IMG/VR virus record: IMGVR_UViG_3300042891_002337
Location: 11,599 to 75,598 of that record
Direction: 5' to 3' (one strand)
DNA: 64,000 nucleotides
Source: a virus
Part shown: positions 4,899 through 24,137 of the stretch, one piece after another
How the letters are laid out: each line of letters begins with the position of its first letter
How positions within the stretch are numbered: the first letter of the stretch is position 1
Program-made: the position numbers and the translations under genes
The notes under the pieces: model-generated
Databases searched by the model: none
What the model was told of the DNA's origin: nothing
Seen by the model: only the letters and a program-made list of their open reading frames with translations

Positions 4899-5360
4899 TT
4901 ATTGCGACTGTCGAACGACAATGCCTGACTGTTTCAGGACTTCAATTCCTGATTCATCGCGGTACTTCTTGTTATAGACAACCTCTCGAATTCCTCCGTT
5001 CACGATTGCCTTTGCGCAAAGCTTGCAAGGAGAGACCGTGAGGTACATCTTCTTTGGCTTTGGATGATTGAAGTCACACTTGATGAGGGCATTGATCTCT
5101 GCATGAATGAATCCTGATTGTCCTGGCTCATGAGACTCAACTTCGTTGGGACCGCCCTTGTGGTCTCCGTTGTATCCAACAGCGAGGACCTGAGTGTTGT
5201 CTTCAGTCACAATCACGGCGCCCACTTGGGTACGCGGATCGAGGGATCGACCTGATATGATCCTCGCCATTTCAATCCACACCTGGTCCCAGGTTGGCCT
5301 CTCGGATTCACTCGGATTCTTCAGGTGATCAACAAAATCGCTGTGTGTGGTAACCATCAT
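4899..5360 (-). CDS. dCMP deaminase (ComEB-like); start uncertain (5360 or 5387)
   Basis: RPTWD...VGAVIV...GYNG...HAEINA...SPCKLC zinc deaminase motifs. Confidence 0.92.
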   Translation of the reverse strand: MMVTTHSDFVDHLKNPSESERPTWDQVWIEMARIISGRSLDPRTQVGAVIVTEDNTQVLAVGYNGDHKGGPNEVESHEPGQSGFIHAEINALIKCDFNHPKPKKMYLTVSPCKLCAKAIVNGGIREVVYNKKYRDESGIEVLKQSGIVVRQSQ

Positions 5361-5373
5361 CAAGTTTCTCGAT

Positions 5374-6219
5374 TCATCCTGTTGCATCTGGTTCAAATAG
5401 GGTCTCAATGCTGGCTCCCGGTGGAAGGGCAAATCCGGCTGCCTTGCGATGGCCGCCACCTCCGAACTTCTTAGCAACCTCACTCACGTCAGAATCCTCA
5501 TGGTGTGCCCTGAGGCTCACCTTCACCTGTCGGGTCTCATGGTCGTAGTACCAGATCACGGCGAAGTCGCACTTGGGTGAGAGGGCATTTCCAATCTCTG
5601 ACATCCAGTGGGAAGAGTTCACAACCAGGACGTCCTTGCCTCCCATCTTTCTGGGAGATGCATGCTTGGAGATCTTTGAGATTACTGTCTTGGAATAGGC
5701 GAGAATGTAGGCTCCCCTCTCCTGAGCATTGTCCACCTCAGAATCGTCGAGGTACTTGTCGAACTCCTCGAAGTCGAACTTCACCATGTCGAATGCTGCA
5801 GAGAACTCCTTGGAGTAGGGGATCTCCCACTTCCAGAGGTCACGGTCTTCAATGAACTTGATGAGACGAGGTGCTTCCTTACCGGGATGGAAGAACTTCC
5901 AAGCCAGCATCGCCCCGCTGTGGTTCATGTCGAACCTGGTGCAGGAGACATCATGAAGCTCAACCATCGCTGACTTGTGGTGGTCGATGATGAGGAAGTT
6001 CTTGGCCTCCTTCATCAAGCGCTTTGTGGTGGCATTGTCGTACGAGAAGTCAAGTACAACAACATTCTTTCCCATCACATCAGGAGGTGTCTCACCGTAC
6101 TTTGCTGCGTGGTATGTTGCCCTGTCACCGAGGAGCTTCCATGCTGAGTATGCCGCTCCGAATCCGTCTGTGCATGCCGCGTGATAGATAACGAGATCTA
6201 CGCTATGGGGGTCCAACAT
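5374..6219 (-). CDS. DHH/DHHA1 family phosphoesterase (NrnB-like nano-RNase)
   Basis: YH..C.DG, LDFS, IDHH, SGA, DRDLW, SLR, GGGGHRKAAG. Confidence 0.9.
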   Translation of the reverse strand: MLDPHSVDLVIYHAACTDGFGAAYSAWKLLGDRATYHAAKYGETPPDVMGKNVVVLDFSYDNATTKRLMKEAKNFLIIDHHKSAMVELHDVSCTRFDMNHSGAMLAWKFFHPGKEAPRLIKFIEDRDLWKWEIPYSKEFSAAFDMVKFDFEEFDKYLDDSEVDNAQERGAYILAYSKTVISKISKHASPRKMGGKDVLVVNSSHWMSEIGNALSPKCDFAVIWYYDHETRQVKVSLRAHHEDSDVSEVAKKFGGGGHRKAAGFALPPGASIETLFEPDATG

Positions 6220-6240: not shown

Positions 6241-6816
6241 TCAGTTCATCGTTTCAGCAACGACAGGATGACAGTTCCAACACATCGGCTCATAACTATC
6301 AGCGCCTCCGACTGAGATCTCTTCCAGTGAGGGAACTCGACGATGCGTGAGAGCAGCATCCTCACCACACATCATGCAAACAGCAGTGCACTTCTCAATT
6401 CGAGTTGCGAAGGGCATCATCCTCTCGATCTCACCGAATGACTTCAGGTTTGCCGAGAGTTCGATGGATGACACGTAGACTGAGATTCCCATACGGAACA
6501 CTTCAACGAGTGCATCGGCACAGCCCTCGATCATGAATGCCTCATCGACTGCCACGACTCCGGGCTTGCGATCACGGACATGTTGAAGTATCTGGCTGCC
6601 TGTGCTCACAGGGACGGCGTCCATCCTTGAGCCGGAATGCGTGACAATTGAGCTGTCTGCATACCTGCCATCGATCTCTGGCTTGAAACAGAGGACCTCC
6701 GTACGTCGAATCCTGTGCCTTTCGACCGCCGCCGTGAGCCGGGTGGTCTTTCCTGACCACATCGGCCCTGTGTAGATTACGAACTCCCTTACCTTATTTC
6801 GCTCGACCATAGTCAT
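6241..6816 (-). CDS. tdk: thymidine kinase
   Basis: GPMWSGKTT, VDEA, CxxC...VGGADSYEPMCWNC. Confidence 0.93.
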   Translation of the reverse strand: MTMVERNKVREFVIYTGPMWSGKTTRLTAAVERHRIRRTEVLCFKPEIDGRYADSSIVTHSGSRMDAVPVSTGSQILQHVRDRKPGVVAVDEAFMIEGCADALVEVFRMGISVYVSSIELSANLKSFGEIERMMPFATRIEKCTAVCMMCGEDAALTHRRVPSLEEISVGGADSYEPMCWNCHPVVAETMN

Positions 6817-7192
6817 CCTCCAGCCTCACAGGACAATTGTCATTCCTGTCGCCGATCTCAATTATGACGCTCTCTTCTAGAGCCTCAATCCTGTATGGAC
6901 ATTCTGATTGTACATTAAGGACTTCACCAGGTACAAGGACTTTTGTACTATAAGGATACTTTTCTTCATTTTCTAGGGTCCGAGAATTCCCGTATGTGAC
7001 CCTCACACGACCCTTAAGCACAAAGAAGACTTCGTTCTTGACCTTGTGGTACTTGAGACTTGTCCTGTGACCCTCATAGATTGTGATCTGCTTTCCATGA
7101 ACTATCGAATTCGTGTGCCAGTGCCATGTGTATCCCCATGGCTTTTCTTCCTTCACCGACTGTGAAGGCCATGCTTCCTTTGGAGCAGCCAT
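6794..7192 (-). CDS. cupin, mannose-6-phosphate isomerase type II C-terminal-like
   Basis: EKPWG...SLKYHKVKNEVFFVLKG...VRLEDDYGR. Confidence 0.8.
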   Translation of the reverse strand: MAAPKEAWPSQSVKEEKPWGYTWHWHTNSIVHGKQITIYEGHRTSLKYHKVKNEVFFVLKGRVRVTYGNSRTLENEEKYPYSTKVLVPGEVLNVQSECPYRIEALEESVIIEIGDRNDNCPVRLEDDYGRAK

Positions 7193-8190
7193 CAGATCCC
7201 CCACCAATTCCAAGTTTGCTCAAGTCCGTCATGAATGTTGACCTGCGCCTTGAAGCCAAGCTCTCTCTTGGCTAGGCTAACGTTTGCCATTGTCTTTCTG
7301 ACGTCGCCCTGTCTCCTGGGCGCATGAACAACCTCAATGTTCGGAAACCTCTTCCTAAAGAAGTCCATGATCTGGTTGTTCGTGTATGAGACTGCAGTTC
7401 CGATATTGATGACCTCACCCCTGAAAGGTTCCTCTCTGGTGGCTGCAAGGATGTTCGCTCTCACTACATCACCGACAAAGACCATGTCCCTAGACTGCTC
7501 ACCGTCGCCGTCAGATCGAAGAGGCTTTCCCTTGTGGATTGCATTGCACCATGCGCTTATTGCAGTTGCGTAGGGTGAGTCTCCTCCCTGCCAGGGACCG
7601 TACACATTGAAGTACCTGAGACACACAACGTCGAGTCCATGAATCTCAGCAGCGACCTTTGCATACTGCTCAACATAAAGTTTCTGGATTCCGTATGGTG
7701 AGAGTGGGTTGGCCTCACATTTCTCTGAGGTCGGAATCTCTTTCGGGTCGCCGTAGATTGCGCAGCTGGATGAGAAGATCATCCTGACCTTGCTCTTACA
7801 GTCTCTTACAGCCTCAAACAGTGTGAGTGACCTTGTGCAATTCACATCAGTAGTTGCCGCAGGATTGTGAACTGAGTACTCTACCCTTGGGTTTGCCGCG
7901 AGATGAAAGACCGCATCGTAGAAACCCCTGCGGATTCGAGATAGAATGAACTCATCCTCGATATCACCTTGGACAACAACAACAGTATCATCAGTCCTAT
8001 TGTGTTCATGGGTGTCTTCGTACTGCTTTCCGAGGATTCCCATCAGGTTTCGAAGGTTCAGTCCGACAAGGTTTGACACATCACCTGTCGACAAGTCATC
8101 GACGACATCAACCCTGTGACCGCGGTCAACGAGAGACCTCACAAGGTTTGACCCAATGAAACCACAGCCACCAGTTACAAGCGCTCTCAT
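7192..8190 (-). CDS. NAD-dependent nucleotide-sugar epimerase/dehydratase (extended SDR)
   Basis: VTGGCGFIGS, FHLAA, SSSCAIYG, YGIQK (YxxxK), LRYFNVYGP, GDGEQSRD. Confidence 0.93.
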   Translation of the reverse strand: MRALVTGGCGFIGSNLVRSLVDRGHRVDVVDDLSTGDVSNLVGLNLRNLMGILGKQYEDTHEHNRTDDTVVVVQGDIEDEFILSRIRRGFYDAVFHLAANPRVEYSVHNPAATTDVNCTRSLTLFEAVRDCKSKVRMIFSSSCAIYGDPKEIPTSEKCEANPLSPYGIQKLYVEQYAKVAAEIHGLDVVCLRYFNVYGPWQGGDSPYATAISAWCNAIHKGKPLRSDGDGEQSRDMVFVGDVVRANILAATREEPFRGEVINIGTAVSYTNNQIMDFFRKRFPNIEVVHAPRRQGDVRKTMANVSLAKRELGFKAQVNIHDGLEQTWNWWGI

Positions 8191-8198
8191 GTTCTCCT

Positions 8199-11100
8199 CT
8201 AGCAATCCAAGTACTTCATCTTTCCGATGTTGGTTGAGATGCCCCAGTTCACCTCATGGTTGACGTTGGCCATCCAGATGGAGTAGGGTACCAGCTTATC
8301 ATTTGAATCTCCCCACACTCGTATCCAGCTGGTCTTTAGAGAGGAGTCTACAACCTTGAGCCGAAGGAAAGTCTTGCCTGTCTTTGTGGACTTCTTTTCG
8401 ATGTGAATCACACAGAACCATGCAATGTCAGAGTTTCCAGGCTCGATCTCTGAGATTGCAGGAATCTCAACCTTTCGAATCTTGCCCATAATCTCTTCGG
8501 GGAACATGATGTGGTGAGGAGCGGCACCTGAGATTTCGGCCTGAAGGGCAACCTTCTCGGTTCGTGTCCAATCCTCGATGCACTGTGTGGATTCGATGAG
8601 GGTCTCAATCACAGGTGGAGCATTGGTCTTTGCTGCCTTCTTGGCACTCATCCCCCATCGTCCCTTGCGCAGGACTCCGTAATTTCCAATGATGATCTCA
8701 TGGAGCTGCTTGTGGTTGTTGACCTTGCCGGACTTGAACTCTTCAAGTGAGGTGAATGCCTCCATTCCAAGAAGGGCCTCGAAGCATCGACGGTTGAGCT
8801 TTGAGTGCTTCCAATTTCCTTCCTCATCGAAGAGGAGCTCATCCATGTTTCGGTATGGTCGATTCTCAATGATCTCATCGACTGCCGAATCACCGACACC
8901 CTTCAAGGAGGAGAGAGGTGGGACGAAAGAATCAAGCTCATCTGACCATGACCACTCCTCAGAAGAAGAGTTGATGTCAGGTGGTGAGATCTTGTAGCCC
9001 TGCTGCTTGATCTCGGACATCACCACAGCGAGGCCTTCAACATTTCGATTCTCAGTCTGAAGGCAGGTGGCAAGCCAATCCTTCTCATAGTATGTCATGA
9101 GCCAAGCACCATAGTAGGAGTCGATGGCATATGCAACAGAGTGGGACTTGTTGAAACCGTAAAGTGAGAAGAATGCGATTGTCTCAAAGAGGTCTGTGGC
9201 CTGCTTCTTTGAAAGACCGGACTTTTCAATACATCCGCTGATGAACTTCTTTTCCAGGGCCTCCTTCTCATCGGACTTCTTGCCAAGGGATGTGAGGTCC
9301 TTCTTCACCAGGGTCTTTCGCATCTTGTCAGAGTCACCAGGTGAGAATCCGGCAAGCTTCTGTGCCAGCAACATGAACTGTTCCTGGAAGACGATGAACC
9401 CGCATGTTGGGCCGAGGATCTCCTCGATGACCGGATGGTCGTACTTGATTGCGGCTCGATTCTTCTTGGCCTCGACGTACTTCTTGTGGACGTCGGCCTT
9501 CAGGGGACCAGGACGATAGATTGCCGTGATGGTGGAGAGGTCCACAATGTTCTCAGGTTGAGCTGAAATACAGAACCTCCGTGCGCCATCCGATGTGAAC
9601 TGGAAGATGCCTGGCCACCGACCTGCCTGGTAGACGAACTTGAACACCTCAGGATCGTTGGGATCGACATATCGACAGTTCAGCTTATCGTCATAGAACT
9701 TCTTGACTTCCTTGAAGGTGGGCTCCTTTCCGGTCTCACGACGGAGGATTCGACGGATACAGTCCTCAACCATCTGCATTTGCTTCAGGCCAAGGAAGTC
9801 GAACTTTAGGAAGCCGTTCTCCTCCAGGTTTCGAATGTTGACGCCTTCAGTCCATGGTGTCTGTAGTTCACCGCGAACTGTGATGAGTGGCATGTGCTTC
9901 TCAAGCTCAGGACAGACAAGGACGCCACCGGCATGACGACCAATGGATCGATTCATCATGAAGAGGGCTCGGACCTTGTCCTCGACCTGAGGGTACTTCT
10001 CCATGAACTCACGGTACCTGGGAGAGTGCTCGAGGCAATCCTCATGCTTGAGGACGAACATGGACTTCTCCATGTTAGGATCTCGGGACTTCTCTGCAAC
10101 CTCACGTTCGAGGGGACCTGTGACGGCATTCACCTCATCGAAAGGAATGCCATAGAACTTTGATACGTCCTTCACCAGGGACTTGAGCTTGAGGGTATTG
10201 AAGTTGGAGACTGGGACAACCGATTCCTCACCGAAGATCTCACGTGCTGCATCGATAAGAGCATCACGGTTTCCGACGTCAGTGTCGATGTCAGGCCAAC
10301 CTGCACGGTGACGACCAAGGAATCGTTCCCAGAGGAGGTCATATCGCATTGGGTCGACGTGAGTGATTCCAAGGAGGTAGTTGACGAGGGAACCTGCGCC
10401 GGAACCACGACCGGCACCTGGAAGAGTCCGGTTCTCGGCAACCTTGAACACCTTCTGAAGTGTGAGGAAGTAGTTCTCGAAGCCAAGGTGCTTGATGTCA
10501 CCAAGCTCGAACTTGGCACGTTCGACGTATTCCTTGTTGGTTGCAAGACCCTCATCAATAAGGGCAGTCTTCACAAGGCTGGTGAGTTGGCTCATTGCAG
10601 TGCTTTCAGATGTGGAGAACGAAGGAAGCTTTGCAGTGTCCTCGAACCAGATCTCCTCACACATCTGCCACGCAATGTCATGTCCACGTTCGATGGAGGA
10701 ACGAACCACATCTTCAGTCCCCTCATAGAACTTGAACTCCTTTCGTCGGAGGAGGTACTCTTCCCACATCTGGTCGGCATTCTTGGGGAAGAGTTCAGCC
10801 TTGATCTGGTCCTTCGTAGGAAGTGGCTTCGGCTCCTCACCAATCTTCATTCGACCAGGCTGAAGCTGGCGATAGATCTCACGGGCTTCCCAAAGGTCAG
10901 GACCAGGGTAGTGAGCGTCAGAAGTGGTAAGGAGGGGAATTCCTGTTCGCTGGGACAGGTCAATCATGCACCGGTTCGTGAGGTCCTGTGCGCCGAGTCG
11001 ATTGAACTGGATCTCGAGGAAGAAGTTGTCTCGTCCAACACAGTCGGTGAATCGATCTACCATGTTCTGAAGTCGATTGTTGATTCGGTTTCGAACGGTC

Positions 11101-11738
11101 TCATCATCAACAAGTCGAGGATCGAGCTGGTCAAACTTGAGGTCTGGGAACTCACGGTAGATAATGCCGGACGGATAGCCGCCGACGCATGCTGTGGAGA
11201 CCACCAGGCCTTCACCATGTTCCTTGAGCATGTTGAAGTCGATTCGTGGGAACTTGTAGAACCCGTCCTTGAAGGACTTCTTGACCAGAGTGAAGAGGTT
11301 GGAGAGGCCGACTCGATTCTTGGCAACCACGACAAGGTGGTACCGTCGACTGATGTTGTCGATCTGCTCGGTTCGAGTGTCGTCGGCATCCTCGACAACA
11401 AGGCCAGCCTCTTCCTCATCGTTCTCGGAGGTGCTGTCCTCTGCCGAGATACCCTTCGAAAGGTCGTAGGCCTTCTTCCATTCCTTCAGGTCGGGGACAA
11501 AGTAGAACTCCACACCGTAGAGTTGGCGGAACTTTGCACCCTTGCCCTTCAGCTTCTTGGCATGCGCGTGTGCATGAGCAAGTCCATTGCCATTTCCATG
11601 GTCTGTCAGTGACCAGGAATCGAGGCCATTCTTCAGGCAGAAGTCGATGTGCTCACGAGGTTCGGAGAGTCCATCGAAAGGAGAGAACGTCGAGTGGTTG
11701 TGGATGGAGGCGTAACGATTTGGGGGTAAAAGAATCAT
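8199..11738 (-). CDS. dnaE: DNA polymerase III alpha subunit (family C) with PHP domain
   Basis: HNHS..S..DG, LTDHG, SDAHY, GRGSGAGSL, PDIDTD, GRHAGGV, KFDFLGL, GFNKSHS. Confidence 0.97.
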   Translation of the reverse strand: MILLPPNRYASIHNHSTFSPFDGLSEPREHIDFCLKNGLDSWSLTDHGNGNGLAHAHAHAKKLKGKGAKFRQLYGVEFYFVPDLKEWKKAYDLSKGISAEDSTSENDEEEAGLVVEDADDTRTEQIDNISRRYHLVVVAKNRVGLSNLFTLVKKSFKDGFYKFPRIDFNMLKEHGEGLVVSTACVGGYPSGIIYREFPDLKFDQLDPRLVDDETVRNRINNRLQNMVDRFTDCVGRDNFFLEIQFNRLGAQDLTNRCMIDLSQRTGIPLLTTSDAHYPGPDLWEAREIYRQLQPGRMKIGEEPKPLPTKDQIKAELFPKNADQMWEEYLLRRKEFKFYEGTEDVVRSSIERGHDIAWQMCEEIWFEDTAKLPSFSTSESTAMSQLTSLVKTALIDEGLATNKEYVERAKFELGDIKHLGFENYFLTLQKVFKVAENRTLPGAGRGSGAGSLVNYLLGITHVDPMRYDLLWERFLGRHRAGWPDIDTDVGNRDALIDAAREIFGEESVVPVSNFNTLKLKSLVKDVSKFYGIPFDEVNAVTGPLEREVAEKSRDPNMEKSMFVLKHEDCLEHSPRYREFMEKYPQVEDKVRALFMMNRSIGRHAGGVLVCPELEKHMPLITVRGELQTPWTEGVNIRNLEENGFLKFDFLGLKQMQMVEDCIRRILRRETGKEPTFKEVKKFYDDKLNCRYVDPNDPEVFKFVYQAGRWPGIFQFTSDGARRFCISAQPENIVDLSTITAIYRPGPLKADVHKKYVEAKKNRAAIKYDHPVIEEILGPTCGFIVFQEQFMLLAQKLAGFSPGDSDKMRKTLVKKDLTSLGKKSDEKEALEKKFISGCIEKSGLSKKQATDLFETIAFFSLYGFNKSHSVAYAIDSYYGAWLMTYYEKDWLATCLQTENRNVEGLAVVMSEIKQQGYKISPPDINSSSEEWSWSDELDSFVPPLSSLKGVGDSAVDEIIENRPYRNMDELLFDEEGNWKHSKLNRRCFEALLGMEAFTSLEEFKSGKVNNHKQLHEIIIGNYGVLRKGRWGMSAKKAAKTNAPPVIETLIESTQCIEDWTRTEKVALQAEISGAAPHHIMFPEEIMGKIRKVEIPAISEIEPGNSDIAWFCVIHIEKKSTKTGKTFLRLKVVDSSLKTSWIRVWGDSNDKLVPYSIWMANVNHEVNWGISTNIGKMKYLDC

Positions 11739-11803
11739 CGGGTTCCTTCCTTGACTGACCGTTTGTTGACGATCAATCTTATTAGGAAGGAACCCGATGT
11801 TCA
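11736..11803 (-). promoter_or_regulatory. dnaE promoter (TGAAC-N17-TAAGAT) interleaved with a perfect 16-bp inverted repeat covering the RBS and start codon
   Basis: catcgggttccttcct (11736-11751) is the exact reverse complement of aggaaggaacccgatg (11784-11799). Confidence 0.75.
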
Positions 11804-11818
11804 GGATCAGGGAGAAGA

Positions 11819-12253
11819 CTACTCGATTCGTCCGTAATACGGCTCAAAGAGAGGCTTACCTGCTTCAATGGAACGCTTCAGGTAGTCACGGAGCTCATCG
11901 TAACTAGTGGTCACCTTCACACCGGACTGTGCCAACATGAGGTTGAAGTTACCTGTGAGGCCCTGGGCAAAGTAGACGATCGGAACGTTTGCGTTGTATG
12001 CGACGCCTGCCTCGAAGATTGTGCCCATGTCCTTGTCTCGTGTGTTGCAAAGGACGAAGTCGGCAGTTCGAATGTGATCGACATTGCCCTTGAACGTGTC
12101 CTTCTGCACATCAAGTGGTGCATTTGGTGGACAGATGAAGATCTTACGAGGGGATGCCACGTTGAGATCCAGTTCAGCCAGAAGATTCTCAAGGGCTTCT
12201 ACCTCTTCAAGAGCCTTGGGTGTGAACCAACCGGATGCGAGATACACTTTCAT
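11819..12253 (-). CDS. nucleoside 2-deoxyribosyltransferase / nucleotide N-hydrolase family protein
   Basis: KVYLASGWF...SPR...NVDHI..AD...DMGTIFEAGVAY...NLML. Confidence 0.88.
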   Translation of the reverse strand: MKVYLASGWFTPKALEEVEALENLLAELDLNVASPRKIFICPPNAPLDVQKDTFKGNVDHIRTADFVLCNTRDKDMGTIFEAGVAYNANVPIVYFAQGLTGNFNLMLAQSGVKVTTSYDELRDYLKRSIEAGKPLFEPYYGRIE

Positions 12254-12262
12254 TTTGACTCC

Positions 12263-12856
12263 TCAGTAATTGAGATTGATATTGTTCGATTCGATTCCAA
12301 ACTGTTCAGCACAGGAGCAGCAGGAATCAACTAGCTCCTTTGGTCCTGCAACAAACACCTGTGTTCCGATGGGAAACTCCTTCACGTTGAGCGGTGTGAA
12401 AGGAGTGTCCGGCCTACCCAGCTTCTTTGTGTTCCATTCAACGACTGTTTCAATTCCCTTCATTTCGCGAATCGATTCAATGCCAGAAGAAAGGGGATGT
12501 CCGCCACGGGTGTAGGAAACAAACCAAGTCCTCAGGTTGCGCTGTGACCTGTATTTGAGGAGGTTGTATCCCACACCCGTGGCGGTGCCGCCACAAACAA
12601 TGACGGCATCCCATGAATCATAAACAGGAAATCCCTTTCCAAGGGGTCCTGCTACATTCACTTCCGTTCCCTCCGGTAGGTCTAGAGGACCTCCGTAGCG
12701 GGTAAGCACCGAAGCAGAATTTTCATCCGAATCGGCTATAGCGAAGAATCGACCGTTGACATTGATGCACTGACCTGGTGAGGCTCCGTCACAGGGCATC
12801 TCAAACTTGACGACAATCATGTCGTCGCCTCTCAAATTTTCAATAACCTTTGCCAT
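12263..12856 (-). CDS. FNR-like (PyrK-type) FAD/NAD(P)H oxidoreductase lacking the C-terminal Fe-S motif
   Basis: PGQ...RFFAIAD, GPLGKGF, GGTATG, VFVAGP. Confidence 0.75.
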   Translation of the reverse strand: MAKVIENLRGDDMIVVKFEMPCDGASPGQCINVNGRFFAIADSDENSASVLTRYGGPLDLPEGTEVNVAGPLGKGFPVYDSWDAVIVCGGTATGVGYNLLKYRSQRNLRTWFVSYTRGGHPLSSGIESIREMKGIETVVEWNTKKLGRPDTPFTPLNVKEFPIGTQVFVAGPKELVDSCCSCAEQFGIESNNINLNY

Positions 12857-12857
12857 A

Positions 12858-13385
12858 CTACACCCAAGCCTTCAGGAGGCCCTGCATTGTTTCTCGCATC
12901 TCGCGTTCCAGGTCCTCATCATCGACATTCACAAGCACCGTCTTGCACTTGGTCCACTTTGTGAACTTCATGTAGAGATCGTGAATCTTGGTGATGTTGT
13001 CATTGATGTTGTCATACTCATCCTTGACGCCTGCATACGAGGATCGATGAGGAATGACGATGACAGTTCCAAGACGAGAGTGACGTTCATCAAGCTGACG
13101 AAGGAGCTCAAAGTCAGTCTGCCTTCCGAGGGCTTGGGAGTATATCCACTCGGAAGGCCAGGCACGATCGAGGATTACCGATGAGCCGGAGGACTCGAGG
13201 TACGAGGTGAAGTAAGTGTCCACATAGCGGATCGCATTGAGAAAGTAGCTTGGGTCGCTGAGAAAGTACTTGTGCTCGTCCGTGTTCTTGAAGTACGGAA
13301 TGCCAAGGCGACGACTGAGCTCCTTGGCCTGCTCGGTCTTCCCGCAGCGATCAGGACCCTCGTAGATGATGATCCGCTGTGGCAT
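12858..13385 (-). CDS. dNMP (thymidylate-type) kinase
   Basis: IIYEGPDRCGKT P-loop, ILDRAWPSEWIY. Confidence 0.85.
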   Translation of the reverse strand: MPQRIIIYEGPDRCGKTEQAKELSRRLGIPYFKNTDEHKYFLSDPSYFLNAIRYVDTYFTSYLESSGSSVILDRAWPSEWIYSQALGRQTDFELLRQLDERHSRLGTVIVIPHRSSYAGVKDEYDNINDNITKIHDLYMKFTKWTKCKTVLVNVDDEDLEREMRETMQGLLKAWV

Positions 13386-14311
13386 TACTTCCCCTCGACC
13401 TTACGGATTCGTGCCTCATACCCGATGGTCTTCCAGTCCTCGATCATCTCCTTCTCACCTGGAAAGAGGAGGTGGTCCGGAAGCTCCTGTAGCTCGAAGA
13501 ACCATGCGGACTTATCGAACTTCCAGTCAGGCTGGTTCTCAGGATTCGAGAGGGAGGGAATGTGCTTGCCTGCGGAAGGAGCACGACCGGTGTTGCCGAA
13601 GACCTTGTCGGTATTGAGGCAGGTCTTGTTGGCGCCCATCGCCTCGAGCTTGGTGAGGAGTGTGGACCAACCGGAACCCTTCACCTTCTCAGAACCATCC
13701 TCATTGAGGTGTGCCTTGATGAGCTCATGGCGAATGAGGCGACCAATGAGGTTGAGCTCATCGGTAAGACCGTTCTCACAACGACGGGCAAAGTAACCAC
13801 GAAGAGCCATGAAGTTGACAACACAGACGAGGTTAGTCTGCTGGCCATGGAATGTCATGTAACGGCAGTCCTGAGGAGGAACACCTGCCGAAACCATCTC
13901 ATCATAAAGAGCCTGAGACTCACGAACGATACTGGCAGCACGATCACCAAACACAGGATGCTCGAAGATGTTCTTAGGAATGGTGACATTGTGCTCGATC
14001 GCTTCAGGCATCTGGGATGTGACGCAATAAGCCCAACCAACTCGACCACGAGTGAACTGTGCAAGGCCGACTCGACTGATTCCTTCCACACGAATCTGGA
14101 AGTTGAGGGCCTCCTGCGGAACAGGAAGTGCAGTACCGGCAAGGACCTCCTTGCAGGCCTCGATGTGCTTCGGATTCGTGGGATCGTACTCCTGATTGCG
14201 AAGAGAGTACCAGGTCTCACGGTACCAGTTCCAGAACATTTGGAACGGGTTCTCGATTCCAGAGTCGAGAATGGTTACCTTGATGTTGCCGAAGCCATTC
14301 GAAATGCTCAC
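13385..14311 (-). CDS. divergent ThyX-fold flavoprotein
   Basis: E...F.IRVEGISR...QFTRGR...SQ, LYDEMVSAGVPPQDCRY, VNF..LR.YFARRC; canonical RHR and SxRY altered. Confidence 0.8.
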   Translation of the reverse strand: MSISNGFGNIKVTILDSGIENPFQMFWNWYRETWYSLRNQEYDPTNPKHIEACKEVLAGTALPVPQEALNFQIRVEGISRVGLAQFTRGRVGWAYCVTSQMPEAIEHNVTIPKNIFEHPVFGDRAASIVRESQALYDEMVSAGVPPQDCRYMTFHGQQTNLVCVVNFMALRGYFARRCENGLTDELNLIGRLIRHELIKAHLNEDGSEKVKGSGWSTLLTKLEAMGANKTCLNTDKVFGNTGRAPSAGKHIPSLSNPENQPDWKFDKSAWFFELQELPDHLLFPGEKEMIEDWKTIGYEARIRKVEGK

Positions 14312-15249
14312 TTTACCTCCAGATTGTTGACTGAGTTTAGAAAATCTTGATGTGTGTCGTAGATATCAATGTTCTTCACATTGACCAACTGTTCATTGTA
14401 AGTCTTCTGTGGAGACAGTACACGAATCCCATGCGATGCATACTCAAGGGCATGCTTTGGTGAATCGTCCATTGCAAACATGACCTTCCCCTTCAGGAAG
14501 TAATCCTGCTGCGTCAGCCACCTGTACTTCTCAGGGCTGAATCCGATTCCATCGACCTCAAAGCCGTGACGCTCGAGCCACGCATATGTGGCGCACTCAC
14601 ACATTGGATTCTCCTGTGGGCGCGCCGTGAGGATCTGGATCCAGAATCCCCTCTTTCGCATTGCATTGAGCTCATCTCGAAGCCAGACAAGAGGTTCGAG
14701 TTCCATCATGCCGCCAGCACTGATAAAGTCCTCAAACACGTTTGTGGGATCAATTCCAGCCTGAAGGATCGCATCGGTGTTGTAGTACTCCTTGCCATGC
14801 AAGTTAGTCTTCACACCCTTCGATTCGAGCCATTCATAGAACTTTGTTCGAAAGTCTGCAACGACGTCGTCGACATCAACAATGACAACAGGTTCACCTG
14901 ACCATTTTCGGGAAAGGAGCCTGTGACGAATGTTGAGCTGGGAGTCACGAAGTTGCATGGCAGCCTCGAGGTCCTCAGAAGAGAAGTCCCATGTGTTGAG
15001 TACTGCGGTGATGTAACGCACAACATCCACAGACTCAAACAGCATCTTGTTTCTGTTTATGAAACGATCTTCTGTGTGGTGACGAAAGTTGATGCTGTTT
15101 GTGAGTTGACCGACCTCATTGTGAAGTGAGAGGAGGAGCGTCTTTGTGAGCTCCAGCTTCTTTTCATCATCACGACCAAACTGGTCCAGCAACTCACCAA
15201 ACGAACGTTGTGCGGACAGGATTCCCTGTAGAGTCTTGAATTCCTTCAT
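14308..15249 (-). CDS. MazG/dimeric dUTPase-like NTP pyrophosphatase fused to a HAD 5'-nucleotidase domain
   Basis: N-terminal helical LHNEVGQL...FESVDVVRY; C-terminal IVDVDDVVAD, ILTARP, K, MDDSP. Confidence 0.78.
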   Translation of the reverse strand: MKEFKTLQGILSAQRSFGELLDQFGRDDEKKLELTKTLLLSLHNEVGQLTNSINFRHHTEDRFINRNKMLFESVDVVRYITAVLNTWDFSSEDLEAAMQLRDSQLNIRHRLLSRKWSGEPVVIVDVDDVVADFRTKFYEWLESKGVKTNLHGKEYYNTDAILQAGIDPTNVFEDFISAGGMMELEPLVWLRDELNAMRKRGFWIQILTARPQENPMCECATYAWLERHGFEVDGIGFSPEKYRWLTQQDYFLKGKVMFAMDDSPKHALEYASHGIRVLSPQKTYNEQLVNVKNIDIYDTHQDFLNSVNNLEVK

Positions 15250-15254
15250 GATTC

Positions 15255-15283
15255 ACTGTAATCCTTGAGATATGGGTTTTCAA
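15255..15283 (-). promoter_or_regulatory. sigma70-like promoter TTGAAA-N17-TACAGT, 5 nt before ATG (likely leaderless)
   Basis: direct sequence; same spacing as the other early/middle promoters in the window. Confidence 0.6.
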
Positions 15284-15516: not shown

Positions 15517-15710
15517 GCACGGTCGGGAATAAGGGTGTTGAAGCCTGTGGGGTAGTATCTCACCTCACTTTCGACCTGGATCGCAAAATGCTTGATGGTG
15601 GGATGTGGCATGTTCAGATCATGTGGAGGGATTCCCTCACCAAGATAGAAACCCACAGCACAGGGATTGCCATTCTCGTTGATGACTCTTACCTTCGTTC
15701 CTCTTTCCAT
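15513..15710 (-). CDS. hypothetical protein
   Basis: 65-aa ORF, AGGAG RBS. Confidence 0.6.
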   Translation of the reverse strand: MERGTKVRVINENGNPCAVGFYLGEGIPPHDLNMPHPTIKHFAIQVESEVRYYPTGFNTLIPDRA

Positions 15711-15718
15711 TTCTTCTC

Positions 15719-15949
15719 CTAAATCGGGTTATTCTTATACTCTTCAATAATCTCTATCATCTGCGGGACATCGTTGTCCTCACACTCCTTGTAGTTGCGA
15801 CCGAGCTCTCGGTTCAACATGTCCCATATGAAAGAATACGGGTTGAGTGCTGGGAGGTCATTGATGTCCTCCATGTTCTTGATGAGGTAGTCGCCGGCCT
15901 CACGGGCCTTCATGCGGACAATCTGGATATTACTCTCTGAGAGGGCCAT
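15719..15949 (-). CDS. hypothetical protein
   Basis: 76-aa ORF in the operon. Confidence 0.6.
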   Translation of the reverse strand: MALSESNIQIVRMKAREAGDYLIKNMEDINDLPALNPYSFIWDMLNRELGRNYKECEDNDVPQMIEIIEEYKNNPI

Positions 15950-15958
15950 AGGTTTCCA

Positions 15959-16600
15959 TTAGTTGTTTCTTTCGGTGTACCAGAGGGTACGTGCGTAATC
16001 CTGGAGGTGGTCTATTAGGCCTTCCAGGTCCTCCTTCCTTACATTTGCAGACACATTGACCATACCGTCGGCGGAGGTCACCTCGACGTGGTCGATTATG
16101 GGTTCTTCAAGCTTTATTCCACACAGCCTCTCCTCAGAAATTGGTGCAAAGTCCCAGAGGTCTACACAGACATTCACCCTTCGTCCTGTGACGATGGGGC
16201 CGGAATGACGGTGACCGTGGACCTGCATGTCGTAATCGCGAATCACAGAGTCAGGCAGGGGCTTGTGACACATTATCACACGTCTTCCGTCCTGAAGGGT
16301 GATGGACTTGCGCTGGAACACCTCAGCGAAACCGCACTCCTTCATTGTCCTGGGTGACCTGTCATGGTTGCCGGAGATGAGGACTTTGTGGCCTCGGAGG
16401 TCCCTGATTAGGCGAGCCGCCGATGTATGGTCACCAAGGAACATGTCCCCGACGACGTACACGGTGTCACTGTCAAGTATCTTCTCGTTCCACCTCTGAA
16501 CAAGCTGCTCGTTCATGTGCTTTGTGGACTCGAACGGACGCTTGCAGTACTCGATGATGTTGTGATGATTGAGGTGAAGGTCCGATGTGAACCAGTTCAT
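15959..16600 (-). CDS. calcineurin-like metallophosphoesterase
   Basis: FTSDLH, VGD, GNHD, CH, HGHRH. Confidence 0.92.
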   Translation of the reverse strand: MNWFTSDLHLNHHNIIEYCKRPFESTKHMNEQLVQRWNEKILDSDTVYVVGDMFLGDHTSAARLIRDLRGHKVLISGNHDRSPRTMKECGFAEVFQRKSITLQDGRRVIMCHKPLPDSVIRDYDMQVHGHRHSGPIVTGRRVNVCVDLWDFAPISEERLCGIKLEEPIIDHVEVTSADGMVNVSANVRKEDLEGLIDHLQDYARTLWYTERNN

Positions 16601-20446: not shown

Positions 20447-20842
20447 TCAATCGTCCGGCCAAGAATCATCGAGCTCCACAGGCGTAGGTACCTGAGCTGA
20501 AGCATACCTCTCAGACCTCTCATTGAGAAAATTGACTATCGATGCAATCGTCCTTTCCCTTTCCTCAAGAAGCTTAGGACGAGAGTGGACCCTGTCAAGC
20601 TCTCCCAATGCCCAGTCCTCGATCCTCTTGAATGCCTCCTCATAGAGAGCAACAAGATCTTCCTTCTTTATCTTCGAAGCCTCGGACCTCACCTCACCAA
20701 TAAAGCCTGTGACGGTTCGAATGAGCCTGTCGGACGCAGGTAGGTCACGATTGGACTCTACAATCTCAGACTGCGCAAGCTCCCTGGTCTGTGACAATAT
20801 TGCAATGAGTTCCCTTACTTCTTCAAGTCTCTCAGTACCCAT
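20447..20842 (-). CDS. hypothetical coiled-coil protein
   Basis: ORF in the operon, probable start MGTERLEE. Confidence 0.6.
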   Translation of the reverse strand: MGTERLEEVRELIAILSQTRELAQSEIVESNRDLPASDRLIRTVTGFIGEVRSEASKIKKEDLVALYEEAFKRIEDWALGELDRVHSRPKLLEERERTIASIVNFLNERSERYASAQVPTPVELDDSWPDD

Positions 20843-21227
20843 TCTCAATCCTCTCAAGAATCTTCTTGTGCTTTGAAACGTATGCCTTCAGGAGGTCCTC
20901 TTCCGTGAATCCGGTCAGGATCAGGACTGAGAGGAAATAATTGAAGCCATCAACGACCTCTTCAAGGAAGTGATCCTCATTGAACTGAGGTAGGTCGGTC
21001 TGCCGATGTGGCTTTGCATTCTTCAGTTCCTGAAGCGCCTCGAACATCTCCTCGACTCCGCGAAGGACAATGTCCCTTGCCATTAGCTGGGATGACTTCT
21101 TGGTGAGGTCCATGGGCCATCCCTCACTGTAACATCCTGTCTTTTCAGTGAGCCTCTTCATGTACTCCTCACGGAGTTCAAAGAGAAGCTTCAGGCCATC
21201 AGTTGGTTGTTGTGTCGTTGAGCTCAT
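20832..21227 (-). CDS. dimeric (all-alpha) dUTPase / dNTP pyrophosphatase
   Basis: VEEMFEAL..LKN.KPH...FLEEVVDGFNY; start MSSTTQ with AGG RBS. Confidence 0.82.
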   Translation of the reverse strand: MSSTTQQPTDGLKLLFELREEYMKRLTEKTGCYSEGWPMDLTKKSSQLMARDIVLRGVEEMFEALQELKNAKPHRQTDLPQFNEDHFLEEVVDGFNYFLSVLILTGFTEEDLLKAYVSKHKKILERIENGY

Positions 21228-21432
21228 TTGCCTTCTGCAGCAGGAGTTGGATGCCTTCTTCGAAACCCTTGATAAACTCAGGATCAGGATCAAGTGTTCC
21301 ACTGTCATTAGTGTGAAGTACTAAAGTGCGGAGGTTATCCACAACGTCTGTGCCTGTGAGGATTGCCATCTGGACGAGACGTGAGATCTGAATGATCGTT
21401 GCGTCTGAAAGCTTGTATGTTGTCATTGTCAC
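21199..21432 (-). CDS. hypothetical protein
   Basis: 77-aa ORF with GGAG RBS; TAAAC-N17-TACAAT promoter at 21442-21469. Confidence 0.7.
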   Translation of the reverse strand: MTMTTYKLSDATIIQISRLVQMAILTGTDVVDNLRTLVLHTNDSGTLDPDPEFIKGFEEGIQLLLQKANELNDTTTN

Positions 21433-21466: not shown

Positions 21467-22255
21467 TTATAGCTGGACTCGAGGACACCACCATGTCGTT
21501 CGTCCATCCTTAGTCTCCTGACAGATGACTTGTTCACCGTTCGGATCGGTCTTTCGACCGTAAACGAGCATTGAGTGGTTTCCCTCTTCACCGTCGAAAC
21601 CCTTGTATGTGAGTATCGTGGATCCGCCATTCTCGTAAGCAGTCTTGATAACCGACCTCACAGACTCATGAAGGAATCGAAGCTGGTCATCTGTGCACTG
21701 TGATACGGTTCGATGAGGACTAAGCTTGGCAAGCCAGAGTGCGTCCGCCTTCAGATAATTTCCAACCCCTGAAACGACGCCCTGGTTCATTAGAGCCTCA
21801 GCCAAGGTAAACTTAGGGTGCTTTCGAAGGCTCTCAATGAATGCTTCCGGCTTCACATCCTCATTCAACATGTCCGGACCAAGTGACTTCAGTTTGTTCT
21901 CAAGTCCCTTTCTGTCTGTGAATTTGATGGTGCCGAAGTTGCGTGGATCGTTGAAGAAGAGGTTGCCCTCAGAAGTTTCGAACTTTACTCTGGCATTCCT
22001 CTCGCGGTTTGACCAGGAGCCAGACATACCAAGCGTGTTGAAGATAACTGTGTCGGTATCCGTGAGCCAGTAGATGAACTTGCCCTTGCACTTCACATCG
22101 ATGATGTTGATCGGAAACTGCACATCTGAGATTCCTTCGATCGGCTTCTTGAGGTATCGACCGGACAGGGGTGTGACTGATAGAAGCTGCACTCCTTGTC
22201 CGATGAAGTTTCCAATTGAACGTACGAAACCTGCTACCTCGGGTCCCTCAGGCAT
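21467..22255 (-). CDS. nei: Fpg/Nei family DNA glycosylase-AP lyase (no C4 zinc finger)
   Basis: MPEGPEV, KGK, LGMSG, DPRNFG, LGPD, LMNQ..VSGVGNYL, GRTTWWCP. Confidence 0.93.
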   Translation of the reverse strand: MPEGPEVAGFVRSIGNFIGQGVQLLSVTPLSGRYLKKPIEGISDVQFPINIIDVKCKGKFIYWLTDTDTVIFNTLGMSGSWSNRERNARVKFETSEGNLFFNDPRNFGTIKFTDRKGLENKLKSLGPDMLNEDVKPEAFIESLRKHPKFTLAEALMNQGVVSGVGNYLKADALWLAKLSPHRTVSQCTDDQLRFLHESVRSVIKTAYENGGSTILTYKGFDGEEGNHSMLVYGRKTDPNGEQVICQETKDGRTTWWCPRVQL

Positions 22256-22691
22256 TTGCAAACTCCTCGCTGTGATTATTCTTCAGGAAGTTGTGATAAT
22301 CTGTGAGTGCGTGGTCCTTTGGTTCGACGCTTCGCCAATCACCAAGGACAAAGATTCGATAGGCATCGGATGCATACTTTCCAACACCATGAAGCTGATT
22401 GACATCAGACCACTTTCCCTCGTGGTACTGAGCAGACATTCTCTTGAGAGTCTGGGTGCGCTTCTTTTGCATGCCCAGAGTCTTGATCATTTCCTCAAGT
22501 TCTGAGTCATCAGCTTCGGACATGGACTTTGCATTTGGCCAGCGCTGGAACATCTTTTCAACGACTGGTTCCATTTGCTTCCTCGTCGTGAGGTTGAGAC
22601 AGAGGCAGCAAACAAGAATCTTCCAGGGATCAGGCCAATAACGTTCCTGGATAAGACCGAACTTTGGGGGATGCCACACGTTTGCCTCCAT
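22248..22691 (-). CDS. HhH-GPD DNA glycosylase, MBD4-like
   Basis: LIQE...DPWKILV....LNLT...LHGVGKYASDAYRIF...W..V.PKDH.L..Y resembles the MBD4 catalytic domain. Confidence 0.85.
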   Translation of the reverse strand: MEANVWHPPKFGLIQERYWPDPWKILVCCLCLNLTTRKQMEPVVEKMFQRWPNAKSMSEADDSELEEMIKTLGMQKKRTQTLKRMSAQYHEGKWSDVNQLHGVGKYASDAYRIFVLGDWRSVEPKDHALTDYHNFLKNNHSEEFANA

Positions 22692-22725: not shown

Positions 22726-23505
22726 TCAGTAGGGAGTTCCGTGTCTTACATGTCCCATGATATCTTCTATGACTGTCTCGGTCTCATCGTGGTCATTAAC
22801 GCTGAAAGCGCGGCCGTACTTTTTGAGGGCTTCATAGATCTCATAGTCGTTTCCATTTGCCTGACATCTGTCACCCACAAACCAGACAGTCTCATCTGGA
22901 AAGTGATTGAGAGCGTATGTCTTGTCCCAACCTACCGGGTAGATATCGAACGAGGTCGATCCGCCAAGCTTTGCAATAAGTGGGGTTCGAATTGTCATGA
23001 GCCGAAGCTTCAACAGGGAGAGGATGCCAAGCCTAAAGTCGTTTCTTGCGTCGAAACTCTCAAACCAGGTCCTGCTTGAGCGATCTGCTTCCCTACCAAT
23101 CGGACACCAATTGACCATTGAGCTCCGCGAGGAGACAAAGTTTCCAGTCAGGGGAAGGTCGCGAACATTATCCATGACCTCACGCTGCATGGTATTGAGA
23201 ATGAGGTGAAGTTCACGCCACTCCTGTCCCAGGTGATTCATCATAGACTTTGGGACTGCCTGAGCCTGCCAGTGACCATTGACAAACTTCCAATGCTCAG
23301 TGCCATTGCACGGCAGCGCTTCCACGCCATGCTCAAATGCCTCAAGCGGAACCTGCTCCTTGACATAGTCAAGTGCAGAACCTGTTACAATTCCAACCCT
23401 TGCAAACGCAGAGAGTTCAGTAAGCTTTCGTAGGTTCTTTTGAGTGATTCCTTGGCGCGGTGGTGTTAGTGTGCCATCAAGATCAAAGAGTACAACGTCT
23501 CGCAT
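22726..23505 (-). CDS. eukaryote-type (HAD IIB, PMM2/Sec53-like) phosphomannomutase
   Basis: LFDLDGTLTPPR, N.CPIGR, GGSTSFDIYPVGWDKTYAL, FVGD...GNDYEIY. Confidence 0.88.
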   Translation of the reverse strand: MRDVVLFDLDGTLTPPRQGITQKNLRKLTELSAFARVGIVTGSALDYVKEQVPLEAFEHGVEALPCNGTEHWKFVNGHWQAQAVPKSMMNHLGQEWRELHLILNTMQREVMDNVRDLPLTGNFVSSRSSMVNWCPIGREADRSSRTWFESFDARNDFRLGILSLLKLRLMTIRTPLIAKLGGSTSFDIYPVGWDKTYALNHFPDETVWFVGDRCQANGNDYEIYEALKKYGRAFSVNDHDETETVIEDIMGHVRHGTPY

Positions 23506-24137
23506 TAGTATCCAAATGCCTCGATCGTGTGCTTGAAAGGATTGTCTTCAATGCTTCGAACAAGATCTAACATCTTCTCGGCGATCTCCCTCACTTCTTT
23601 CTGAGCATCGGGCTTCATTCGTAGTCCAAGGAAGTGATTGAAGGATCGCCAGTTGAACATGATGTCCATCGTGATCTGATTGCCGTAAGGGAGGTAGAAC
23701 CTCGCAGACTCCTTGGCACGCTTGCGATCCATGCCTCCGTCTACAAGGCGCTGGAGTGTGTCATGGTAGCGCATGATTGCGTCCTCCATGAATGCGATGT
23801 ACTTTGCCTTCTCAACGGTGGGCCAATCATCAGGAACAACATACTTGTCATCCTTCAGTTCCTTGTACCGTGCAGACTCACCATTGATGGAGACGCCGAC
23901 CCTGTGCTTCAGGAGGTGAATGTGAGTAGCGGTATCAACGGTCACAAGGAAGTGAATCGAGCTCTTCTCAAAAGGAGTCTCATGTCCATTCTCAGCAAGC
24001 ATCTTGAGAAGCTGTGGGATCCTCTTCATCTTGTCGGGATTCAAGTCTCGGCTTGTGCTTGTCCATGCTGAGAGAGCGTGGACTTCGTCCCCACCGTACC
24101 AACCGACCAATTCTACCTTGTTGTCCTGAAATGGCAT
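23505..24137 (-). CDS. thyX: flavin-dependent thymidylate synthase
   Basis: GHETPFE, KHRVGVSINGESARY, ESARFYLP, NWRSF..FL.LR...AQKEVR. Confidence 0.93.
   Translation of the reverse strand: MPFQDNKVELVGWYGGDEVHALSAWTSTSRDLNPDKMKRIPQLLKMLAENGHETPFEKSSIHFLVTVDTATHIHLLKHRVGVSINGESARYKELKDDKYVVPDDWPTVEKAKYIAFMEDAIMRYHDTLQRLVDGGMDRKRAKESARFYLPYGNQITMDIMFNWRSFNHFLGLRMKPDAQKEVREIAEKMLDLVRSIEDNPFKHTIEAFGY

Follow-up and report, generated by a model that had tools for sequence, protein, structure and literature searches.

Why does a phage that carries a canonical flavin-dependent thymidylate synthase (FDTS or ThyX, EC 2.1.1.148) also carry, in front of its replicative polymerase gene, a second protein of the same fold in which several catalytic residues are missing? 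The question is raised by a cluster of five genes in a 64,000-nucleotide stretch of DNA (hereafter the window; positions 11,599 to 75,598 of the IMG/VR record IMGVR_UViG_3300042891_002337), whose numbering is used below unless another locus is named. The record, 75.6 kb long and 22% complete according to CheckV, is a fragment of a jumbo phage, and the same phage turns up in freshwater-lake metagenomes of many studies from 2017 to 2025. We called the ThyX-fold paralogue ThyXp. With moderate confidence, we interpret the module built around it as a pre-replicative route to a C5-modified deoxyuridine monophosphate (dUMP) for the phage DNA, the modification probably including a hydroxyl handle.

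The five open reading frames (ORFs) lie head to tail on the minus strand, where an earlier reading based on the bare letters of the DNA (the sequence-only reading) had placed them, and in the ORF map of the window dnaE then follows downstream. In gene order, the cluster encodes a nucleoside triphosphate (NTP) pyrophosphatase-like/HAD fusion protein (14308-15249, 313 amino acids [aa]), ThyXp (13385-14311, 308 aa, GTG start), a TMK-like deoxynucleoside monophosphate (dNMP) kinase (12858-13385, 175 aa, its start overlapping the ThyXp stop), a minimal NAD(P)H oxidoreductase of the FNR superfamily (12263-12856, 197 aa), and a protein of the nucleoside 2-deoxyribosyltransferase family (11819-12253, 144 aa). 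The successive junctions are a 4-nt overlap, a 1-nt overlap, a 1-nt gap, and a 9-nt gap, followed by 80 nt before dnaE. The latter gene (8199-11738, minus strand, 1179 aa) encodes a DnaE-type replicative polymerase, with a Pfam DNA_pol3_alpha match of 181 bits, PHP, finger, and HHH_6 domains, and a phrog_405 match at E 2e-222.

Active site and distribution of the ThyX-fold protein

The Pfam Thy1 model (PF02511) recognized ThyXp with 56.2 bits (cut-off 24.8) in a partial match covering residues 59-199. The AlphaFold2 model (predicted local distance difference test [pLDDT] 90.2) matched Thermotoga maritima ThyX TM0449 in Foldseek (E 1e-7, template modelling [TM] score 0.65-0.71, about 200 residues), and also the UMP/dUMP methylase PolB (4p5b). 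Thus, the ThyX fold previously assigned to this gene was borne out by structure prediction and comparison with the T. maritima enzyme. At the sequence level, a single-sequence query of the PDB gave no match, and even the family profile reached no better than E ~1e-3.

Residue equivalences were established by aligning the family profile to T. maritima ThyX and inspecting 25 diverse members (alignment A1). The three altered motifs pointed out in the sequence-only reading, ALPVPQE, RGR, and SQM(P), are present and invariant in 25/25 members. The first replaces His53 with Leu in every member of the family (LPxPxE). The second alters the RHRxxxxxxxS motif, with RGR in the window as well as in each of the 25 aligned members and with RQR or RQS in the clade of small phages, so that the H79 equivalent is Gly or, in that clade, Gln, while the Ser is kept. 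In the third, S-Q-M-P stands in place of S-G-R-Y (R90 to M, Y91 to P), without exception in alignment A1; this loop is also kept in the small-clade loci L027, L029, and L030, and reads SQET in L035. On the other hand, ThyXp shares with canonical ThyX the equivalents of R78, S88, R147, and R174, with ThyXp R88, R150, and R177 (for R78, R147, and R174) invariant, and nearly all members keep R80, which is Ser in L030. ThyXp further differs from the canonical enzyme by a C-terminal extension of ~100 aa, which is family-specific, strongly conserved, and has little regular secondary structure in the alignment and in the AlphaFold2 model.

The functions of these residues in canonical ThyX give the pattern its meaning. 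His53 makes stacking contacts with the folate pteridine and with the reduced flavin, and Tyr91, placed by Arg90, is proposed to act as the general acid in the removal of water from the flavin carbinolamine (PMC11940539). A tyrosine at the equivalent position covers the reacting atoms like a lid, and the central His of the RHR motif contacts the phosphate and ribityl groups of FAD (PMC6514825). The residue pattern thus indicates that the parts holding a uracil nucleotide against the flavin are preserved, and that those for folate-dependent reductive methylation are gone. The retained residues and the Thy1 score above the gathering threshold also favor the main rival explanation, that ThyXp is a divergent but true thymidylate synthase, converting dUMP to deoxythymidine monophosphate (dTMP) in a remodelled site. 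Against this explanation stands the family-wide loss of H53, H79, R90, and Y91: in T. maritima ThyX, mutation of Tyr91 makes flavin oxidation ~1000-fold slower (PMC11940539).

More than 159 ThyXp homologues were found in metagenome-derived protein collections, none of them with a functional name; at 50% clustering, the family comprises ~24 representative clusters at E <= 1e-30. It is abundant in freshwater, marine, and other metagenomes, and has so far been seen solely in viral or metagenomic sequence. Indeed, blastn of the cluster against cultured phages gave no match, tblastn of three family members against 50,697 phage records retrieved no full-length relative (just canonical ThyX at 30-65% coverage), and a two-motif scan of 185,579 bacterial and archaeal species genomes found no member of the ThyXp family.

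Partner enzymes and conservation of the module

The fusion protein had been described as a MazG/dUTPase-HAD nucleotidase. The HAD half stands above threshold: residues 120-291 match the 5'(3')-deoxyribonucleotidase model NT5C with 28.4 bits (cut-off 24.8), and 10 homologues share its DxD, T, and DD motifs. An all-alpha domain of the MazG/dimeric-dUTPase superfamily, NTP-pyrophosphatase-like, occupies the N-terminal ~110 aa; it scores 19 bits with dUTPase_2, below the cut-off, yet is supported by hhalign as a homologue of the dUTPase_2-like ORF at 20832-21308 of the window (96%, E 4.5e-9); the protein also matches the NTP-PPase family phrog_173 at E 6e-4.

The family assignments proposed for the kinase and the deoxyribosyltransferase were both confirmed. 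The kinase matches phrog_761, "thymidylate kinase," at E 1.2e-12, carries the motifs GPDRCGKT and DRAWPSEWIYS, and has a Pfam Thymidylate_kin match limited to the P-loop. The deoxyribosyltransferase-like protein scores 48.9 bits with PF05014 (cut-off 28.8) and E 1e-23 with phrog_7995. Its nearest solved relative is the N-deoxyribosyltransferase of PDB entry 6evs (E 4e-8), with which the catalytic Glu aligns in the D-x-G-T-x-x-E motif (DMGTIFEAG versus DTGTAWELG); the protein may act either as a transferase or as an N-hydrolase.

The FNR-like identity of the reductase, weakly supported by sequence alone, was confirmed by its AlphaFold2 model (pLDDT 93.7), which has the two-domain FNR fold and matches cytochrome b5 reductase, PyrK, flavohaemoglobin reductase, and FNR (Foldseek E 4e-11 to 1e-8, TMq 0.7-0.8). 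Its conserved features include the GPxGxGF, GGTG, and GPK motifs and an aromatic residue at the C-terminus. The protein lacks the RxY(S/T) flavin motif: the region reads GRFFAIAD, and the Arg position is not conserved among seven homologues.

To describe the neighborhood of ThyXp, the surrounding ORFs were clustered in 26 loci. In 23/26 loci, the deoxyribosyltransferase is no more than a few kb away from ThyXp, and a kinase accompanies ThyXp, in most cases directly downstream, in an equal number. In 15 jumbo-type loci, the kinase adjoins ThyXp or is close downstream, in some of them with a homing-endonuclease-type insert in between. In eight small-clade loci, its place is taken by an unannotated 140-aa ORF (family f7) that proved to be a kinase homologue (hhalign 92.5%, E 5e-7), located directly downstream of ThyXp in six of them and two genes upstream in L030 and L033. 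A nucleotidase occurs with ThyXp in 19/26 loci, in the form of the pyrophosphatase-like/HAD fusion in the jumbo clade and of an HD-domain, YfbR-like 5'-deoxynucleotidase in PolA-type phages of 56-58 kb. The four-gene core thus consists of the deoxyribosyltransferase, a nucleotidase (HAD or the non-homologous HD), ThyXp, and the kinase. The loci cover DnaE-type jumbo phages, the PolA-type phages, and a lineage of 61% GC; since their GC content ranges from 28% to 61% and they include at least three replication-module types, we consider the cluster a mobile functional module and not the synteny of a single lineage.

The FNR-like reductase was found in 7/26 loci only and is absent from L013, L014, L015, L018, and L024. 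The expectation that the neighborhood would be conserved therefore holds for the four-gene core, recovered in three unrelated lineages and in the cultured phage described below, and fails for the reductase. The proposal that ThyXp is fed by this partner was not sustained either: the reductase is dispensable, and highly variable where it occurs, so that such feeding is optional at best.

The cultured relative is the Geobacillus phage GR1 (OK896991.1; locus L040; host G. stearothermophilus ATCC 10149), a thermophilic siphovirus with a homologous block at 23.9-30.2 kb, ahead of its PHP/DnaE gene. All four core genes are homologous to those of the module. The deoxyribosyltransferase is 41-49% identical to those of the compared loci, the HD nucleotidase is 34-38% identical to that of the small clade, and the kinase is of the f7 type (hhalign 97%). 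The 322-aa "FAD-dependent thymidylate synthase" of GR1 aligns with the ThyXp family profile (hhalign 97.5%, E 5e-12) and has the same LP..E replacement of His53; it differs in keeping RHR, in having SAQCTGD in the active-site loop, and in its C-terminus. The GR1 reductase is a nitroreductase-type NAD(P)H flavin reductase, whereas that of the window is FNR-type, and the GR1 cluster also contains a glycosyltransferase and a thioredoxin. The flavin reductase beside the ThyX-like gene is thus a second case of non-homologous displacement. Together, the HAD/HD and FNR/nitroreductase displacements suggest that activities have been kept, rather than particular genes. DNA modification is not mentioned in the GR1 paper.

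Canonical ThyX and ThyXp were found together, with no ThyA, in the window record and in 4/4 jumbo relatives searched (G006-G009); the ThyA model PF00303 had no match at E <= 1 in the window record and none at E <= 0.001 in G006-G010. ThyXp is the sole thymidylate synthase (TS)-like gene in four complete small phages, in the partial genome G005 (61% complete), and in a 99%-complete 49-kb phage. A dCMP deaminase was present in 5/5 records searched (the window, G006, G007, and two small phages).

We then compared the window with its closest relative, locus L023, through the ratio of nonsynonymous to synonymous substitution rates (dN/dS). The ratio was 0.059 for ThyXp (dS 0.65), 0.059 for the deoxyribosyltransferase (dS 0.71), 0.089 for the kinase (dS 0.51), 0.125 for dnaE (dS 1.2), and 0.150 for the fusion gene (dS 1.7, 67% identity); it was not computable for the FNR-like gene, in which dS is saturated. 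As far as these sequence comparisons indicate, ThyXp, the kinase, and the deoxyribosyltransferase are under strong purifying selection and evolve as a unit, in contrast to the reductase and the fusion gene, which are exchangeable. The FNR-like gene (12263-12856 versus L023:12332-12901) is 49% identical at the amino acid level in a context where its neighbors are 92-93% identical, and its divergence, along with that of the outlier fusion gene, suggests that alleles were replaced through recombination within the operon. Coexistence with canonical ThyX under strong purifying selection implies that ThyXp is not a redundant copy, and this argues against a second true thymidylate synthase.

The module has been invaded by mobile endonuclease genes. 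In three relatives (L023:11005-11784, L014, and L019), ThyXp and the kinase are separated by a TnsA/endonuclease-I-like ORF; a family of zinc-finger/PD-(D/E)XK homing-endonuclease-like ORFs (f19, 285-321 aa, e.g., L019:14224-15189) stands beside dnaE in relatives; and the dnaE of L010, L012, and L025 matches in separate pieces, with inserts of 0.5-1.5 kb between them. Other accessory genes were also observed. In two marine-type loci, the deoxyribosyltransferase and ThyXp flank a 338-aa glutamine-synthetase-like ORF (L017:8932-9948; also L016), possibly a tailoring enzyme that forms amides, and a gene of the IMP dehydrogenase/GMP reductase family (292 bits) is found near or inside the module in L019 (3752-4834), L011, and L025.

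The small complete phages (56-58 kb) have a variable group-transfer cassette between the kinase and a gene that we call trimeric-dUTPase-like from a sequence motif (family f8). In L027 (11291-15141), the slot holds a choline kinase (LicA), a LicC-like nucleotidyltransferase, a BCCT transporter, and LicD, and it is filled by the same gene families in L028 and L032. L026 (7753-12056) carries a Caps_synth glycosyltransferase with LicA, LicC, an EamA transporter, and LicD; L034 (11293-13739) carries LicD, an SDR, and an IspD-like cytidylyltransferase; and L029 (11285-12157) has a single TAGT-like glycosyltransferase, at 26 bits just below the cut-off. Variable cassettes of this kind in a nucleotide operon resemble the pattern seen around hydroxyl-bearing modified pyrimidines. 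They may decorate the DNA with phosphocholine or polyol-phosphate, or modify the host surface.

The conventional dTMP supply that had been reported elsewhere in the window is there. On the minus strand are canonical ThyX (23505-24137, 210 aa; Thy1 122 bits over the full length, with the motifs HETPFE, KHR, and SARY), thymidine kinase (6241-6816; Pfam TK 121 bits), the dCMP deaminase that supplies dUMP (4899-5483; PF00383 70 bits at 4974-5294, i.e., G000:16572-16892), and the dUTPase_2-like all-alpha NTP pyrophosphatase mentioned above (20832-21308, 158 aa; Pfam dUTPase_2 25.6 bits; family f5); a ribonucleotide reductase lies at 24998-27487. In relatives, f5 immediately precedes the MazG-HAD gene (L011, L012, L016, L017, and L019) or is located one to two genes before it (L014 and L015).

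Some further genes of this region are worth recording. A GDP-mannose-4,6-dehydratase-like SDR (7192-8205) directly follows dnaE, a PMI-like cupin lies at 6794-7213, and a eukaryote-type phosphomannomutase (22726-23505) abuts canonical ThyX. These NDP-sugar genes are dispersed among the replication genes, and the scanned ORFs of the window included no identifiable glycosyltransferase. Two glycosylases are encoded beside the dUTPase-like gene (21467-22691), one a 264-aa DNA glycosylase of the Fpg/Nei family and the other a small, 147-aa protein of the HhH-GPD type; in relatives, the former (family f10) lies just upstream of the dUTPase-like/fusion/ThyXp block.

As regards expression, the cluster had been credited with a promoter of its own, a sigma-70-like hexamer pair (TTGAAA-17-TACAGT, 9/12 match) upstream of the first gene on the minus strand (15255-15283). 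The match is at chance level: the region contains four such 9/12 sites, compared to 2.7 ± 1.9 in shuffles. A lake-water metatranscriptome contains six short, near-identical contigs, mapping to 11547-13066 and 15522-16124 and covering the dnaE start, the deoxyribosyltransferase, the reductase, the kinase, and ORFs upstream of the cluster. They are weak evidence of expression, as they represent a small share and DNA carry-over is possible.

Candidate pathway and rival explanations

The sequence-only reading saw in the cluster an additional, non-canonical nucleotide pathway. This idea gained from the recurrence of the module, the coexistence with ThyX, the purifying selection, and the family-wide residue loss, and it was deprived of the promoter, the obligatory reductase, and the supposed lack of precedent discussed below. 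From the gene set, folds, residue pattern, conservation, and co-occurrence, we infer the substrate, the product, the roles of the hydrolases, and the incorporation into DNA as follows. The phage dCMP deaminase, the dUTPase-type pyrophosphatases, and thymidine kinase would provide dUMP. ThyXp would bind it, the kept arginines holding the nucleotide phosphate, polarizing the uracil ring, and holding the flavin; it would stop before methyl formation or drop folate and, with reduced flavin, would install a hydroxyl-bearing substituent, yielding 5-hydroxymethyl- or 5-hydroxy-dUMP. Where present, the FNR-fold reductase would keep the ThyXp flavin reduced. The TMK-like kinase would phosphorylate the product, and the host NDP kinase and the phage DnaE would complete the route. 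The fusion hydrolase and the deoxyribosyltransferase may clear away the competing thymidine nucleotides or reuse their deoxyribose for deoxyuridine; alternatively, they may convert thymidine to deoxyuridine, which would re-enter through thymidine kinase.

Three considerations lead to this interpretation. A uracil substrate is preferred to cytosine because the uracil-polarizing arginine is invariant, dCMP deaminase was present in all five records searched, and dUTPase-type genes are present; coherently, the deaminase and the dUTPase-like f8 of the small clade make the supply converge on dUMP. A product other than dTMP is preferred because the residues for methyl transfer are lost, canonical ThyX is retained, and a dedicated kinase and hydrolases are fixed partners. 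Lastly, a hydroxyl substituent is plausible given the loss of the folate-stacking and lid/acid residues, the flavin reductases, and the transferase cassettes of relatives.

A more specific version can be put forward only tentatively. It holds jointly that ThyXp has abandoned reductive methyl transfer, and possibly folate, and that reduced flavin, from an FNR-type or nitroreductase-type partner in the loci that have one, puts a hydroxyl-bearing group on C5 of dUMP, making ThyXp the convergent, ThyX-side counterpart of the ThyA-fold 5-hydroxy-dCMP synthases. In the same version, the small phages would decorate that hydroxyl, their LicD/CDP-alcohol and glycosyltransferase cassettes adding phosphocholine, ribitol- or glycerol-phosphate, or sugars to the DNA.

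Several points weigh against a route to modified dUMP. The canonical ThyX and the thymidine kinase of the window imply that thymidine is still made and salvaged, so that replacement may be partial. The reductase is absent from many close relatives, and the acidic metal-binding set of the pyrophosphatase-like domain in the fusion protein is conserved just in part. The transferase cassettes could act on the host surface instead; moreover, a search of the jumbo clade for LicD and TAGT found neither, so that the decoration cassettes of the small clade are not transferable to the window. Residues of the C-terminal extension could stand in for the lost ones. Finally, the set found in small phages (dCMP deaminase, dUTPase, a ThyX-like protein as the sole TS-like gene, and a TMK-like kinase) is that of an ordinary dTTP supply.

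The last two points are also central to the divergent-synthase explanation, in which the extension, perhaps with a dedicated reductase, would make up for the lost residues and the cluster would boost dTTP supply or salvage. The small complete phages, with ThyXp alone on a classical dTTP route, and the location in a replication operon beside dnaE fit it well. Nevertheless, synthesis of dTMP needs neither a dedicated nucleotidase nor a deoxyribosyltransferase, and a nucleotidase of the dTMP/dUMP type would oppose it; the variable transferase cassettes within the operon also speak against it, as does the stable coexistence with canonical ThyX in the window record and four jumbo relatives. On balance, we consider this explanation unlikely.

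A cytosine route, as in T4 and RB69, appears improbable to us. Here, ThyXp would convert dCMP to a C5-modified dCMP, the pyrophosphatase-like domain would be a dCTPase, and the other hydrolases would purge dCMP and deoxycytidine. The T-even gene logic is indeed matched (dCTPase, TS-type modifier, dNMP kinase, retained thymidylate synthase, thymidine kinase, and dCMP deaminase), and the retained canonical ThyX and thymidine kinase of the window are easier to reconcile with replacement of cytosine. However, the equivalent of Arg174, which polarizes uracil, is invariant, and the deaminase in every record searched, with dUTPase-like genes in the window and in small-clade loci, channels pyrimidines to dUMP. 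A kinase fused to a miniature cytosine-type TS domain, which would favor this route, is also absent from the window record and its relatives, according to the PF00303 searches given above, and the ORF beside dnaE in relatives belongs to the homing-endonuclease-like family f19.

We give equally little credit to a module limited to nucleotide remodelling or salvage, to one whose product is a free modified base or nucleoside that stays outside DNA, as with the TS-type enzyme and the N-glycosidase of deoxyribosyltransferase fold in MilA/MilB, or to a ThyXp that is a non-catalytic nucleotide-binding subunit. In their favor, the partner most tightly linked to ThyXp, apart from the kinase, is a protein of the deoxyribosyltransferase family, which with the nucleotidase would yield nucleosides or free bases, and catalytic residues are missing. 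On the other side, the dedicated dNMP kinase of nearly every locus suggests that the product is phosphorylated further, the replication operons that house the module place it beside DnaE or PolA, and the very strong conservation of the remodelled pocket argues for catalysis.

Known modifiers and significance of the ThyXp family

To our knowledge, the biochemically established pre-replicative pyrimidine modifiers are ThyA-fold enzymes. The pathways of T4 (gp42, gp56, and gp1; 5-hydroxymethylcytosine), of the SPO1 type (5-hydroxymethyluracil), and of RB69 and DLP3 share with the module a common logic: a TS-type modifier, a dedicated dNMP kinase, hydrolases of the NTP pyrophosphatase or nucleotidase type, and a dCMP deaminase. 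They differ from it in the modifier, ThyA-fold there and ThyX-fold here, and in the deoxyribosyltransferase, which is a fixed partner here. As in these pathways, a later group transfer to a hydroxyl handle looks likely in relatives of the module. The ThyA-fold homologues of RB69 and DLP3 make 5-hydroxy-dCMP with flavin and O2, and LicC/choline-kinase-like enzymes, a TMK-like kinase, and a HAD nucleotidase-like protein are likewise encoded in their clusters (PMC13326640). These synthases demonstrate that TS-type scaffolds can be repurposed for flavin-dependent hydroxylation.

The claim that a ThyX-fold base modifier has no precedent does not stand, at least as regards the idea, since gp130 of phage SP-15, a Thy1-family protein, had already been hypothesized to be a hydroxymethyl-dUMP synthase (Kropinski et al., PMC5977210). 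The DNA of SP-15, YerA41, and Carin-5 is hypermodified at T, as established by experiment. Their variants (SP-15 gp130, YerA41 gp081, and Carin-5 gp049) are weakly Thy1-like (15-48 bits) and, with 371-413 aa, longer than ThyXp; SP-15 also retains canonical ThyX. A deoxyribosyltransferase is located ~2-3 kb from the TS variant in SP-15, LIS04, and YerA41, and ~11 kb from it in Carin-5. We evaluated whether the SP-15, YerA41, Carin-5, and LIS04 variants belong to the ThyXp family and rejected this: hhalign gave a probability of 0.1% for alignment A1 against A4, and of 3.9% for LIS04_124 against A1. With no specific relationship to the family, these proteins represent an analogy and not a case of membership. 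The oxidoreductase beside the Carin-5 deoxyribosyltransferase likewise has no detectable relation to the FNR-like protein of the window.

ThyXp belongs to a large, unnamed ThyX-fold family with a kinase, a deoxyribosyltransferase, and a nucleotidase as fixed partners. Since a homologous module is present in the culturable phage GR1, the question is directly testable.

Hypermodifications of phage DNA defeat restriction and CRISPR defenses, and supply enzymes for DNA chemistry. If ThyXp proves to be an unusual true thymidylate synthase, it would redefine which ThyX residues are essential. If the more specific, tentative version of the hydroxylation route is true, the phosphocholine, polyol-phosphate, or sugar decorations on the DNA of small phages would be undescribed modifications. 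If the module is, as we favor, a route to modified dUMP, it would represent a new reaction type for the ThyX fold, a well-studied antibacterial drug target, and a widespread ThyX-fold modifier would constitute a second, independent enzymatic origin of modified pyrimidines.

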